IMG/VR virus record: IMGVR_UViG_2718218131_000002
Source: a virus
Lineage: Duplodnaviria; Heunggongvirae; Uroviricota; Caudoviricetes
Direction: 5' to 3' (one strand)
Length of the DNA: 64,000 nt
Below are positions 3,481-8,444 of this stretch, one piece after another. Numbering within the stretch: the first letter of the stretch is position 1; every line of letters starts with the position of its first letter. Made by a program: the position numbers and the translations under genes. The notes beneath the pieces are model-generated. The model did not search any database. It had not been told where the DNA came from and saw nothing but the letters and a program-made list of their open reading frames with translations.

Positions 3481-3903
3481 GTGGCAAAAGTTTTTACACA
3501 AGAAGAGCGGGAAAAAATTAAAGGGCAGGTTGTTGAACTCGTACGCCGGAGTGGGCGTGAGACGTTACGGCAACTGGAAGTCAAGACAGGTGCGACAAGA
3601 TATCTGATGAGCGTTCTCGCAAGAGAGCTGGTTGCCAGCGGCGATGTATACAACTCTGGTTACGGGTTATTCCCGTCTGAACAGGCGCGTAAGGACTGGC
3701 AAAATGCCCGTAAAAAGCTCTCAAGGGCAAAGCTGAAGGAACCATCTGCGGTTGATCCGGACCTTATCTGGTCATTACCTGACGGAGAAATACGTCGCTA
3801 CGACAGGCGTCAGAACATAATCTGTCGCGAGTGCCGGAAGAGTGAAGTTATGCAGCGCATACTAGCATTCTATCAGGGAAATGCTCGATATTTATTGAAG
3901 TGA
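3481..3903 (+). CDS. Hypothetical phage protein (140 aa, GTG start)
   Basis: ORF of typical GC content after the replication gene; no recognised motif. Confidence 0.35.
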   Translation: MAKVFTQEEREKIKGQVVELVRRSGRETLRQLEVKTGATRYLMSVLARELVASGDVYNSGYGLFPSEQARKDWQNARKKLSRAKLKEPSAVDPDLIWSLPDGEIRRYDRRQNIICRECRKSEVMQRILAFYQGNARYLLK

Positions 3904-4155
3904 TGAGATTAAAGTTTATTAGTTCAGATATTGATTGGCTCTTTTGTGGAGTAGGGTAGAGTTAGTGTGTTTGTCTGCTTGGTGCCAGCAGCGGATATGT
4001 TTAACAACAGAAAGCATTCAGCATGGTTAGTGGATTTGCAAAGTGGATTAGGATTTGAGAAACTTTGATGAAGTTGTAAAGCTTGTTTCTATAAAAATAG
4101 AAATTTAACTAATAGTTAAACACACCTCCAGCTTCATTGAAAAGGATTATTAGCT

Positions 4156-4443
4156 ATGATTGATCCACTTATTAGAAACTTACAGAGTGATATTGCACTA
4201 CTCCAGCTTTATATCGCGCAACGCAAACAGGCAGGCTTTCATGACATGGAAAGAATAATTGAGTCATTGACCATCTTTATGTTTCGCGCGCTGAAAATGG
4301 GTGAACTGGTAAACATGAATCAGATTAAAGTTAATTTTCCCGCCATTGATTTAGCTGATAATAAAAACATGATAGCAGTTCAAGTTACTACGAATGCAAG
4401 TCCAGCAAAAATTAAAAAACTATCGAATCTTTTGAGAAAATAA
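4156..4443 (+). CDS. Hypothetical protein, N-terminal part of a probably frameshifted ~300-aa gene (AT-rich accessory island)
   Basis: ATG with AAGGAT ribosome-binding site; the ORF ends just after an A6 run while the downstream frame is already open from 4416. Confidence 0.45.
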   Translation: MIDPLIRNLQSDIALLQLYIAQRKQAGFHDMERIIESLTIFMFRALKMGELVNMNQIKVNFPAIDLADNKNMIAVQVTTNASPAKIKKLSNLLRK

Positions 4444-4559
4444 ATGAAATAGGAGAGAGTCTGAAAGATAAATACTCTACTTTATATATTTTTGGTTTTT
4501 GTAAAGCCTCAAGATACCTAACTCCAAGTTATTGTAAAATAATCGACCCCAGCTATTTC

Positions 4560-5054
4560 GTGAATGAACTTTGCGATAAAGCAGATGAAGATATGGTCCA
4601 GGATATGATTGACGCCATTCGACGCCATCATGATTATACATCATTACATCCATGGAGTGATAAAGATTCACTCGAAATTATACTCAATATTATTAATCGC
4701 AATGCAATAAAACATCGGATGAGTTGCGAAGGCAGTCTGTCTGATATGCTCACTGGTTTAAAAGAAATTAATGAAGTAATTACAAAAGGAACAATTCAAC
4801 GTAAGCAACGTTCAAAATCGATATCTGACTTCAAAGATCAAAGCATGGTGAAATTTATGAGAGGTGTAATGGATGATTTGTCTGTTATTCAAGCCATAGT
4901 GAACAAATCTAAAGTTAACCAAGGTGATATGGTTTATATAAGCCATGAAGATATGATTAATATTGATAAATTAAAAGCTAAAATAGCAAGTGATTCATCA
5001 GAGATTGCAAGGCTAAATAATATTGATATAACACTAAATGTTGTTGATTTATAA
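4560..5054 (+). CDS. Hypothetical protein, C-terminal part of the same disrupted gene
   Basis: Reading frame is open from 4416 (no start codon until GTG at 4560) and overlaps the end of the upstream ORF; AT-rich codon usage. Confidence 0.45.
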   Translation: MNELCDKADEDMVQDMIDAIRRHHDYTSLHPWSDKDSLEIILNIINRNAIKHRMSCEGSLSDMLTGLKEINEVITKGTIQRKQRSKSISDFKDQSMVKFMRGVMDDLSVIQAIVNKSKVNQGDMVYISHEDMINIDKLKAKIASDSSEIARLNNIDITLNVVDL

Positions 5055-5368
5055 TTGTCGATTTAGCAAAACAGAGAATGCTTTGAAAGTTTCACCGAGA
5101 AATATTTATTGTGAACCTCCTTATTGTTTATCGACTTTTACTCTCCGCTCATTGCAGTACTGTCGGAGAAGGCTACTATGTACAAGAAGCAGCTAACATA
5201 AGCGAGCATCACTATTGATATTAGGAAGAGTATATAAAAACTTCATGCTGAACCTTACAAAAGTAGGTAAACCGGCAATGGCCTAAGTGGCAGGGTCATG
5301 TTGATCCGGCACTGCCGAGCTAATAATTAACAAGCAAATCACTCTTTCTAATAATTTGTTGAAATAAA

Positions 5369-6028
5369 CTAAATATGTATATGTTTACCAACAACCACAT
5401 ATGAACTACCTGCTTTGCTCCATGATTTTATTATTTCTAAATTATTATCTGAGCATATTTTACTTACAGTATCCACATCTAATAAACCATAGTAGAAAGC
5501 ATTGCGAGAGTTTTGGTATATATACCCATGCAAATGTTTAATACCGCTCTCGTACCTCTTGAAATAAGAACTTTTGTATTGATTGACAATCAGTGCTTCA
5601 CCATCACTCTTTAATAATTCTCTAATCGCACTGAGGACTTTGTGAATTGTGGATTCACATGGAATTGCGGAAAGCACGTTTGCGCAAAGTATGAAATCAT
5701 AATGATTTGTTATTTTATCTATATTTTCATAAGAAACAATATTAGCATTCTTATAGTTATTTATCACGTAATCTGGAATCGTGGTTTGTACACCTCTGAT
5801 AATTTGCACTCTTTCTAGTTGTCTTCTGGAATCTAAAAATGTCACAGTTTCAAATTTATTTACTAATTGTTCTGAATATCTAAGTTTTCCACATCCAAAA
5901 TCAAGGGCATTGCCATTTTTATTAGTGCTTTCAATCTGTTTACAGAGATAGTTAGATGGCATAGTGTGCGGTTTCGCTGCATTTTCTGAACGTATGTTTA
6001 TTCCATTTATTTTGTAATTCAAAATCAA
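5369..6028 (-). CDS. Class I SAM-dependent methyltransferase (219 aa)
   Basis: Motif I LDFGCGKLRYSEQL, acidic motif FLD and ILCANVL motif; about 30% GC; 6 bp downstream of the membrane-protein gene. Confidence 0.7.
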   Translation of the reverse strand: MILNYKINGINIRSENAAKPHTMPSNYLCKQIESTNKNGNALDFGCGKLRYSEQLVNKFETVTFLDSRRQLERVQIIRGVQTTIPDYVINNYKNANIVSYENIDKITNHYDFILCANVLSAIPCESTIHKVLSAIRELLKSDGEALIVNQYKSSYFKRYESGIKHLHGYIYQNSRNAFYYGLLDVDTVSKICSDNNLEIIKSWSKAGSSYVVVGKHIHI

Positions 6029-6034
6029 CCTCGT

Positions 6035-6742
6035 TTAAAAAATATTGTTATTGTTAAAGAATTCTTTTATTTTGCTATCAGGTATTTGTCTTACTTGGCT
6101 TTCTGTTCTTGGTTTAACTGATGCTATGAAAATAAGGAAGTCAAATGCGACAAGAGAAATAATCCACAACCAAAGATTAATTAAAGAGCCAGTAACAGAG
6201 AATATATTTGTTAATTTGGCGATACTTATTATTAAAATAGTAACAAATGCGATTACTGTATGTTCAAAGAAAACCCAAAAGTAATAAACTTTGTTCCAGA
6301 AAAGTTCAACGTAATGTTTGTCTTTTAACTCTTTAACTTCTGGGTAATACAGTTTACTCATTACCTTGTGAGATTCATCAGTAGTTAATTTTCTCGTAAC
6401 GCCTGCAATTTTTGCTAATGGTTTAATAATTAAATGACTATCCCACATCTTCCTTATTCCAATAATTTTTGCTACATTATTATGTAGATCTAAAGCTCCA
6501 CTAATTACTGACCAAAAAACTGAAGATGCAATTGGTAATATGCCAAAGGTTAATATCCATTTAATAAATTCCTCGTAGTCTTTAACGGGGGGGATATACT
6601 TGGCATTAATGCCAACCAATGGCATGTAGCCATAAATGACTAATGATAGGTAAAATATAAATGTAGTAATAAAAGTCGCCTTATGGAGCATAGGCAACAT
6701 TTCATTATAACTCTTTGGTGGTTCTAACATTTTACTCTCCAA
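6035..6742 (-). CDS. Multi-pass integral membrane protein (235 aa), unknown function
   Basis: Several long hydrophobic segments (FITTFIFYLSLVIYGY, ILTFGILPIASSVFWSVISG, FVTILIISIAKL, LWLWIISLVAFDFLIFIAS); apparently co-operonic with the methyltransferase. Confidence 0.6.
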   Translation of the reverse strand: MESKMLEPPKSYNEMLPMLHKATFITTFIFYLSLVIYGYMPLVGINAKYIPPVKDYEEFIKWILTFGILPIASSVFWSVISGALDLHNNVAKIIGIRKMWDSHLIIKPLAKIAGVTRKLTTDESHKVMSKLYYPEVKELKDKHYVELFWNKVYYFWVFFEHTVIAFVTILIISIAKLTNIFSVTGSLINLWLWIISLVAFDFLIFIASVKPRTESQVRQIPDSKIKEFFNNNNIF

Positions 6743-7171
6743 ACACTCAAAAAAAAGCTAATCTTCTATAATAACGAAATTCAGCTGGCACAATTAAAGA
6801 TTAATTGCCACCAATTTCTTGATTTTATAATTTTATCTAAATGTTTTTGATTAATCTAGTCCTAAAAGAAACCTACTGCATAAATATTTATGCTGATGAC
6901 CCACTCCCTGTTCGTTAACACATAGCAACGTTAGTAATGCATCCTAAGTGATCAATATTTTTGCTAGCTTCATCTGCTCGCTCAAAGGGAACTATAATGT
7001 TGGCTTGCGTGTGACTTGGCATGTTTAAAGAAGTGCTGGTGGTGACTGGTTGCTGTTTTCCATTTCCACAGAACAAAATCATAGAAACTATACCCAGTAG
7101 TTGTATTGAATCACTGACGAGACAGCCTCATATTTATCAGGACTGGTGTACGTCCAATACAGGAGGTTGTG

Positions 7172-7267: not shown

Positions 7268-7472
7268 ATTGGCGAGGTAACGGTAGTTAAGTAGAATTGC
7301 TGCGGGTGCTTGAGGCTATCTGCCTCGGGCATCAACACCAAAGGCAGATAGAGAAAAGCCCCAGTTAACATTACGCGTCCGGCAAGACGCTTAACATTAA
7401 TCTGAGGCCATATCTATGCTCTACACACGTAGGTTAGCCTCTTACGTGCCGAAAGGCAAGGAGAAGCAGGCT

Positions 7473-7628
7473 ATGAAGCAGCAAAAGGCGATGTTAATCG
7501 CCCTGATCGTCATCTGTTTAACCGTCATAGTGACGGCACTGGTAACGAGGAAAGACCTCTGCGAGGTACGAATCCGAACCGGCCAGACGGAGGTCGCTGT
7601 CTTCACAGCTTACGAACCTGAGGAGTAA
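7473..7628 (+). CDS. hokD: Hok/Gef-family type I toxin (51 aa), HokD/RelF-like, with an in-frame Mok-like upstream extension from 7416
   Basis: MKQQKAMLIALIVICLTVIVTALVTRKDLCEVRIRTGQTEVAVFTAYEPEE; structured leader upstream; terminator downstream. Confidence 0.8.
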   Translation: MKQQKAMLIALIVICLTVIVTALVTRKDLCEVRIRTGQTEVAVFTAYEPEE

Positions 7629-7793: not shown

Positions 7794-8444
7794 ATGAATG
7801 AAAATCAGTTAGCTCCTTGTTGGGAATTTCAACCTTATCTTGCTGAAAACTATGTTCGCCACTTGTTGGCGGAGATCGCTAACGTACTTGAGCAGCTGTA
7901 CTATCATAAGCACGCATTAGACAGCAACTGGTCTGAAGGTGTAAGGGCTTATGATTGGGTCAGAAATCATCTTATTCAAAATGAAGATGCAATTCCTGGC
8001 CTTGAGATGATTTCCAAGGGGTTGGACTATGTAGTTGCTTTAAATAAAGTTCCGCTACAATTTACCAAAGATTGCATTAATAACCCCAAAAAGAAACATC
8101 GTCTGCGTCGAAATAAAGTAGAGTATGAGCAACTCTCATTGTTTGGTGATGTTGAGGCTGAGCAAGATATTACATGGCGAGTCATAGCTGAGCCTTTTTT
8201 ATCCGAAGAGGGCGATGGTGAATTAGAGTCCACACTGCCTCGTTGGGAGGTAGCTCTTGTTGGATTTAATACTTATGGTGCTCAGATTAGTATAGTTTCT
8301 CATCAATCTACAGCATCGATGCCGCTTATGCCTCTTGATTATAACACACTCCCTGACGAAGCGGAGATTAATAAGGTGCCTCTTCGTCGGCGTACGAAGG
8401 ATAAAGATTTGGATGTGAGCAGTGATGGAACATCAGGTGAATAA
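7794..8444 (+). CDS. Hypothetical protein (216 aa), partner of the downstream HTH-peptidase gene
   Basis: ORF overlaps the next gene by 23 bp; no recognisable motif; acidic C-terminus. Confidence 0.5.
   Translation: MNENQLAPCWEFQPYLAENYVRHLLAEIANVLEQLYYHKHALDSNWSEGVRAYDWVRNHLIQNEDAIPGLEMISKGLDYVVALNKVPLQFTKDCINNPKKKHRLRRNKVEYEQLSLFGDVEAEQDITWRVIAEPFLSEEGDGELESTLPRWEVALVGFNTYGAQISIVSHQSTASMPLMPLDYNTLPDEAEINKVPLRRRTKDKDLDVSSDGTSGE

Follow-up and report, generated by a model that had tools for sequence, protein, structure and literature searches.

A frameshifted SMEK-domain gene in an Escherichia coli prophage and its intact family, a candidate single-gene defense nuclease

The window analyzed here, a stretch of 64,000 nucleotides (nt) from a Caudoviricetes virus (IMG/VR record IMGVR_UViG_2718218131_000002), carries at positions 4156-5054 two open reading frames (ORFs) that, on comparison with their relatives, prove to be a recently inactivated copy of one gene for a protein of 299 amino acids (aa), in which contraction of a run of seven adenines to six (A7 to A6) shifts the reading frame after codon 88. 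The contraction cuts the PD-(D/E)xK nuclease core of the encoded SMEK-domain protein in two and uncouples it from a C-terminal four-helix-bundle domain. We posit, with a probability of about 0.6, that the intact protein is a stand-alone, single-gene defense nuclease of the abortive-infection type with a helical sensor, carried by the prophage to exclude competitors. Part of this picture is already known, as the intact allele is in RefSeq under a domain-level name (WP_000566848.1, “SMEK domain-containing protein”, 299 aa), and the frameshift is ordinary homopolymer pseudogenization. What is new relative to a preliminary description of this DNA, made by a model from the letters alone, is that the gene is already annotated intact in RefSeq and that it stands alone, with its two domains in a fixed arrangement. 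To the extent that the literature could be searched, solo SMEK plus four-helix bundle is undescribed as a functional unit, and the intact family makes a reasonable candidate for a single-gene defense system that would be new.

The geometry of the split given in the preliminary description, including the A6 run, was reproduced exactly by recomputed frames (Table 1). ORF1 encodes residues 1-88 of the SMEK-domain protein, followed by seven out-of-frame residues and a stop, and the second frame, interrupted by a TAA at 4413-4415, runs open from 4416 as far as its stop codon (5052-5054) and overlaps ORF1 by 28 nt. Adding one A to the A6 run joins the frames into a continuous ORF of 299 codons, with the A7 sequence reading AAA ATT AAA AAA ACT (K-I-K-K-T) and the overlap in the window starting in ATT AAA AAA CTA. 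The GTG from which the listed ORF2 would start, inside the shifted frame, has no Shine-Dalgarno sequence, and ORF2 is thus unlikely to be a gene in its own right. Structurally, ORF1 accounts for two N-terminal helices and beta-strands one to three, with E36, D65, Q76, and K85 as putative catalytic residues, and the 3' part holds the last two core strands of the nuclease domain and the C-terminal domain with its invariant R182, A184, and G212. The shift, following residue 88, separates the third core strand from the fourth and leaves ORF1 unable to encode a whole nuclease fold; 211 conserved residues lie downstream of the shift, out of the ORF1 frame.

Among E. coli genomes, as in all other taxa examined, the intact allele (A7 in E. 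coli) is the norm. An 81-nt probe centered on the A run matched 145 complete E. coli genomes, which were taken as those with the locus; 10 of these were 100% identical to the window over 81 nt (A6), and the other 135 fell in a band of 95-99% identity, in which the sampled rows all span 82 nt (A7), except for strain L65 at 83 nt (A8), which puts the A7 allele, with its uninterrupted gene, at about 134 genomes. The A6 genomes (n = 10) are all from chicken isolates and all have the same prophage. Over 3.2 kb, intact alleles are otherwise 100% identical to the window, and alignment to E. coli strain C7 has one single-base gap, in the A run, and no other difference, which argues that the inactivation is recent. 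The PGAP annotation has one 299-aa coding sequence (CDS) in A7 strains and two in A6 strains, the latter deposited in RefSeq as WP_001436291.1 (the 95-aa 5' fragment) and WP_001381102.1; both entries can now be corrected to fragments of one dead gene. The locus thus has the marks of a pseudogene made by homopolymer slippage, namely an intact ortholog that differs by run length only and conserved downstream sequence that is lost from the frame, and in this chicken-associated E. coli lineage the gene is probably dead, with the 95-aa and 164-aa ORFs its remnants and not genes. The A8 (+1) allele of strain L65 (NZ_CP034738.1, locus L018, 1282-2182) is also split into two annotated CDSs and, unless the L65 assembly is in error, would be an independent event, with slippage in both directions.

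Evolutionarily, the repaired frame extends well beyond E. coli. A search with the repaired protein returned 108 cluster representatives, from 99% down to 31% identity, in Proteobacteria and Bacteroidota, all of which carry PF21941 (SMEK_N); full-length homologs are single ORFs of ~290-320 aa, and those below this length seem to be fragments. In an alignment of 52 homologs, K85 and T89 are invariant across the junction and I90 and F93 nearly so, which identifies the repaired frame as the biological one. In other genera AAG, GAT, or AAT codons encode this K-x-K-T, and the A7 tract is not kept. The tract is incidental, a homopolymer within an AT-rich gene, and has undergone slippage at least twice (A6, A8). 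The preliminary proposal that a 1-nt deletion in the A run had split a gene of ~300 aa is therefore upheld by the large A7 majority in E. coli, by the single ~300-aa ORFs of distant homologs, and by conservation of the joined frame across the junction; intact homologs were found as single ORFs, not consistently as the two separate genes that would have spoken against it. A 3-kb contig labeled Streptomyces sp. NPDC088196 (NZ_JBFBIU010000052.1) carries an 87%-identical copy of this low-GC (guanine plus cytosine) enterobacterial gene, and is most likely contamination of that assembly.

Two other accounts of the A6 run have to be set beside pseudogenization. The run could be a homopolymer error of sequencing or assembly, with the real gene an intact A7, which counts against our account: no error is more frequent in long-read assemblies than indels in homopolymers, the window differs from intact alleles by one base only, and the A8 of another assembly could likewise be an error. 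We regard this as improbable, and as less probable again a functional split, in which programmed -1 frameshifting or transcriptional slippage acts from A6, or the A tract is a phase-variation switch of a costly defense gene. A -1 slip on AAA AAA would restore the exact wild-type K-K-T, and the occurrence in nature of both A6 contraction and A8 expansion makes the tract a recurrent mutation site; however, T-AAA-AAA does not fit the canonical heptamer X XXY YYZ, the downstream RNA lacks structure (minimum free energy -8.2 kcal/mol, z +1.09), most family members have the other codons named above in place of an A run, the in-frame allele is the majority, and A7 is shorter than typical contingency tracts, with two independent events only among the 145 genomes. 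Programmed -1 recoding was rejected on three of these grounds, the non-canonical heptamer, the unstructured downstream RNA, and the single-frame homologs, mostly without an A run.

Functionally, residues 5-120 of the repaired protein match SMEK_N, both as NF033859 (1.3e-30, 105.1 bits against a cutoff of 30) and as PF21941 (2.2e-22, 79.9 bits against a cutoff of 27), and the latter is matched by 36/36 diverse family members. The profile search that the preliminary description had recommended after frame repair thus gave SMEK_N, and its suggestion that the N-terminal segment resembled an abortive-infection-type domain was broadly right (the peptide it quoted is present in the ORF1 translation), with the precise identity now given by NF033859 and PF21941 as an effector of cell-killing systems. 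The PADLOC model of the Argonaute-associated REase-APAZ protein (Aga_REase-PNTD1-PNTD2) also matches residues 8-146 (1.4e-20), over profile positions 9-143 of 463 only. The only solved relative is 26bh, the Mrr domain of the Kordia jejudonensis Mrr-APAZ prokaryotic Argonaute (pAgo) system, which was reached at 7e-8 with the single sequence and at 4e-13 with the family profile (~115 residues), and which has in common with the family the motif NFPAIDLAD...(A/V)Q(V/I)T...K. In an alignment of 36 members (to ~25% identity), the nuclease domain has invariant E36, N55, D65, Q76, and K85, and the helical domain invariant R182, A184, and G212; the pattern E...D...Q-x-T, followed seven residues on by a lysine, is a variant of PD-(D/E)xK of the Mrr-like kind. 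With hidden Markov model scores above both cutoffs, a restriction-endonuclease (PD-(D/E)xK) fold, and conserved acidic, Gln, and Lys residues, the protein is, judged by its sequence, a member of the SMEK_N domain family, in which K85 would take the place of the motif lysine. The Pfam scan found no match in the protein to Mrr_cat (PF04471) or to known DNA-binding domains.

The C-terminal domain appears to belong to this family and to no other. An exhaustive phmmer search with ORF2 on 1.84 billion representative proteins returned 50 proteins, of which the full-length ones have 287-320 aa with the match at about 135-300, and none in which the domain is fused to another effector; 10/10 distant ones tested carry SMEK_N. 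All matches being of one architecture, the domain is exclusive to the fixed arrangement of SMEK plus four-helix bundle. It has no Pfam family match, and Foldseek searches against the PDB and against viral models (BFVD) gave no significant match. The segment R182-N-A-I-K-H187 fits the HEPN motif Rx4-6H, with R182 invariant and R-[NSD]-A-x-x-H present in most members; several divergent members, those of Bacteroidota among them, have D, N, or C in place of the His. The idea of a HEPN domain is weakened by this variation in divergent clades and by the lack of a HEPN profile or structure match, and stays a weak lead.

A peptide-pattern scan of genome contigs, with one strict pattern, gave 21 loci; ten homolog loci were annotated by gene tables, and 124 neighbors of 15 further loci were scanned against PADLOC. 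The Cupriavidus homolog lies beside Hachiman (HamA plus helicase) and SymE, that of Citrobacter beside a Lamassu-type operon and an AAA_15/21 ATPase, that of Vibrio beside Abi_alpha, that of Xanthomonas beside H-NS, a PIN protein, and Gabija, and those of Pectobacterium and of a metagenome contig beside CBASS (SMODS and S_4TM). Mobile-element settings occur too: integrases, a resolvase, an AAA_13 ATPase, SymE, and TacAT adjoin the Enterobacter homolog, an integrase and a SLATT_5 protein the Pseudomonas homolog, and AbiGi, within a conjugative element, the Yersinia homolog, and the Pantoea homolog sits at the edge of a P4-like satellite. Among the 124 neighbors, strong PADLOC matches were to DpdF, PDC-S05, PDC-S19, defense reverse transcriptases, IetA/IetS, ShosA, AriA, PtuA, and AbiLi, with each family seen at most twice, and beyond close copies no recurrent partner gene was found among the homolog loci surveyed. 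The GC content of family members (0.42 in Pseudomonas, 0.54 in Cupriavidus) is below that typical of these hosts. The SMEK gene is thus horizontally mobile, lower in GC than its hosts, without a conserved neighbor, and placed in defense islands and mobile elements, the signature of a mobile, stand-alone defense-island gene.

The SMEK domain is the effector of the Kordia heterodimer of short pAgo and SMEK-APAZ and is among the effector domains found at the N-terminus of short Lamassu LmuA; oligomerization activates related nuclease effectors both in SPARDA and in Lamassu (PMC10810196, PMC12205087, PMC12663957). As cited in two of these papers, the Kordia SMEK-APAZ/pAgo complex has weak collateral DNase activity on target recognition (PMC12205087, PMC10810196). 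The window protein shares its N-terminal nuclease domain with SMEK-APAZ (Mrr-APAZ; SPARDA-type, Kordia jejudonensis), where it is a cell-damaging effector; unlike SMEK-APAZ, it has no APAZ, as the match to the PADLOC model ends at position 143 of the 463 in the profile and the four-helix bundle makes up the C-terminus, and, unlike SPARDA-type systems, it has no Argonaute gene in the window or at the surveyed homolog loci, nor any Piwi family in the gene tables of the ten annotated loci. It is therefore not a member of the SMEK-APAZ/pAgo systems, and activation of the solo protein cannot be guide-RNA dependent. Like short Lamassu LmuA that carries SMEK, it joins an N-terminal effector of this class to a regulatory C-terminal part, and Lamassu nuclease effectors are switched on by oligomerization; unlike Lamassu, the protein lacks the LmuA C-terminal domain and is not accompanied by LmuB (SMC-like) or LmuC. 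No Lamassu model in PADLOC or Pfam matched the protein, no LmuB was found in the window, the neighbors of its homologs are variable, and the Lamassu system adjacent to the Citrobacter homolog is complete without the SMEK gene. Lacking the LmuA C-terminal domain and LmuB, the protein is thus not a Lamassu component. Unlike Mrr-like nucleases (E. coli Mrr, the nuclease domain of type ISP enzymes such as LlaBIII, AF1548), it has Thr78 at the motif lysine and the invariant K85 seven residues later, and no Mrr_cat, winged-helix DNA-binding, helicase, or methyltransferase modules. Shedu SduA (DUF4263) embodies the same concept, as a single-protein defense nuclease of defense islands in which PD-(D/E)xK is joined to a variable or regulatory domain, and differs from the SMEK protein in nuclease family and domain order; no PADLOC model of Shedu matched the SMEK protein.

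Taken together, the lack of a conserved partner and the defense and mobile-element neighbors make a stand-alone defense nuclease the most likely function. Mechanistically, we propose that the helical C-terminal domain would hold the nuclease inactive until an infection cue is sensed, that sensing by this domain could lead to oligomerization, and that oligomerization could in turn lead to non-specific DNA cleavage, by analogy with the nuclease effectors of short-Argonaute and Lamassu systems; a prophage would carry the gene to exclude competing phages. Several observations weigh against this proposal. The lysine of the (D/E)xK motif is a threonine (Q76-V-T78), so catalysis hinges on the assumed substitution by K85, and the sole biochemical study of a SMEK domain found, according to the citations above, weak activity. 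Structure comparison of the C-terminal domain gave generic helical-bundle matches only, so that its sensor role is something we purely infer. The enrichment of neighbors in defense islands is qualitative, without a matched background control, and no full-length copy of the gene was found in deposited phage genomes in a phage-genome collection. None of the PADLOC v2 system models covers a solo SMEK protein, and the literature on SMEK domain, SMEK_N, PF21941, WP_000566848, and Mrr-APAZ held no study of solo SMEK proteins and none that ties them to phage defense.

In the window, the split gene (GC 0.329) lies in a low-GC cassette together with a convergent gene pair for a class I S-adenosylmethionine (SAM)-dependent methyltransferase and a multi-pass membrane protein (Table 1). 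The claim that the gene is foreign to the prophage backbone agrees with this 2.9-kb, 32% GC cassette, which also occurs, at 88% identity, on a Citrobacter plasmid: the whole of it aligns as one block of 2960 nt (87.9% identity) to the Citrobacter koseri IncHI2A conjugative plasmid pK820-1, where the SMEK gene is intact (A7), the cassette adjoins a recombinase gene, and the methyltransferase and membrane pair is kept together. The pair occurs in the E. coli/Citrobacter cassette only and is absent beside every SMEK homolog of ≤83% identity (25 other loci); thus, the methyltransferase is probably not a functional partner of the SMEK gene and merely travels in the cassette. It has a weak PADLOC match to mad2 of the MADS system (9.7e-5), and searches of Pfam, NCBIfam, PHROGs, and PADLOC gave nothing for the membrane protein. 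The Pseudomonas neighbors (a 219-aa protein and the SLATT_5 protein), considered as counterparts of the window's 219-aa methyltransferase and membrane protein, turned out to be unrelated. A promoter and terminator scan of the cassette found fewer promoter-like sites than in shuffled controls, and none directly upstream of 4156.

Other functions can be imagined for the intact protein. It could be a direct restriction enzyme, an Mrr-like type IV or a sequence- or modification-specific one, which would cut invading DNA without killing the cell and use the helical domain for DNA recognition. Both the sequence and the fold of the nuclease domain are indeed Mrr-like, a DNA methyltransferase partner is missing, as would be the case for a type IV enzyme, and the defense-island context fits equally well, but the lack of a match to Mrr_cat or a known DNA-binding domain, the action of characterized SMEK domains as non-specific collateral effectors, and a four-helix bundle that is atypical as a module recognizing modified DNA make this unlikely. 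We give considerably less credence to a three-gene system with the convergent methyltransferase and the membrane protein (e.g., a nuclease with a protective modification or a membrane effector): although the three genes form one cassette that has moved intact between E. coli prophage and Citrobacter plasmid, and the methyltransferase has the weak mad2 match, the pair is missing at the 25 other loci, the methyltransferase is of small-molecule/TehB-type families and not a DNA methyltransferase, and the convergent orientation means that the SMEK gene is not co-transcribed with the other two. Marginally less credible still is a role outside defense, as a toxin/addiction or maintenance factor of mobile elements or as a DNA-processing enzyme of such elements. 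In all cases the gene is found within or beside mobile elements (prophage, P4-like satellite, conjugative element, plasmid, integrase islands), SymE and TacAT toxin modules adjoin some loci, and recurrent inactivation is compatible with toxicity; however, no conserved small antitoxin-like gene is adjacent, the carrier elements are unrelated, which argues against a role in the life cycle of one element, and the neighbors are predominantly recognized defense systems.

Within the reading of a stand-alone defense nuclease, we offer a more detailed version only tentatively, and think it rather doubtful as a whole: the intact 299-aa protein might be an undescribed single-gene anti-phage system in which a SMEK/Mrr-like DNase is checked by a hitherto unclassified four-helix-bundle sensor, with the R-x4-H-like motif perhaps a second, HEPN-like RNase site; it would be the solo cargo of prophages, satellites, plasmids, and defense islands in Proteobacteria and Bacteroidota, and A7 slippage (A6, A8) would be a natural way of repeatedly switching off a gene that is costly and toxic to its own cell. 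In more general terms, the intact family presents, in compact, solo, and widely transferred form, a nuclease effector that has so far been known only within multi-component systems (short Argonaute, Lamassu). Should it protect against phage, it would show how control of a SMEK effector can be left to one small helical domain, and would add a single-gene system to the defense catalog. The natural loss-of-function alleles provide ready isogenic controls, as prophage lineages one base apart.

Table 1 Features of the split gene, its cassette, and the adjoining prophage region in the window
Feature	Coordinates	Strand	Details
ORF1, 5' fragment	4156-4443	+	95 aa, ATG start, frame 1; from ORF list and translation
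3' part in shifted frame	4416-5054	+	Residues 88-299
ORF2 as listed	4560-5054	+	164 aa, GTG start
Frameshift site	4414-4419	+	A6 homopolymer within ATTAAAAAACT; A7 in intact allele
Mobile low-GC cassette	3973-6896		2.9 kb, GC 0.324 versus 0.47-0.49 in flanks; from composition
Class I SAM-dependent methyltransferase	5369-6028	-	219 aa; TehB / Methyltransf_12/23-like; not a DNA methyltransferase family; convergent with SMEK gene
Multi-pass membrane protein	6035-6742	-	Operon-like with methyltransferase, 6 nt apart
DUF977 gene	3481-3903		Left of cassette
sok RNA	7304-7478		RF01794, 114 bits
hokD ORF	7416-7628		156-nt CDS in related strains' annotation
Protein without family match	7794-8444		216 aa; overlaps next gene
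HTH_3 + Peptidase_M78 protein	8422-9528		368 aa; ImmA/IrrE-type

The prophage itself is Qin/Rac-like lambdoid, with dicB-dicA-dicC-ydaT...DUF977 on the left of the cassette and sok/hokD on the right. The slot between the DUF977 gene and ~6897 holds QueH (epoxyqueuosine reductase) in other E. coli prophages and one plasmid, and is nearly empty in strain A20; as its contents vary among prophages, it behaves as a cargo hotspot of Qin/Rac-like prophages. Directly to the right of the cassette lies a complete hok/sok type I toxin-antitoxin locus (7304-7628). Downstream of hokD, a two-gene module (7794-9528) is present in the A6 prophage lineage and absent in the similar prophage of strain C7, and thus marks a second variable cargo slot.
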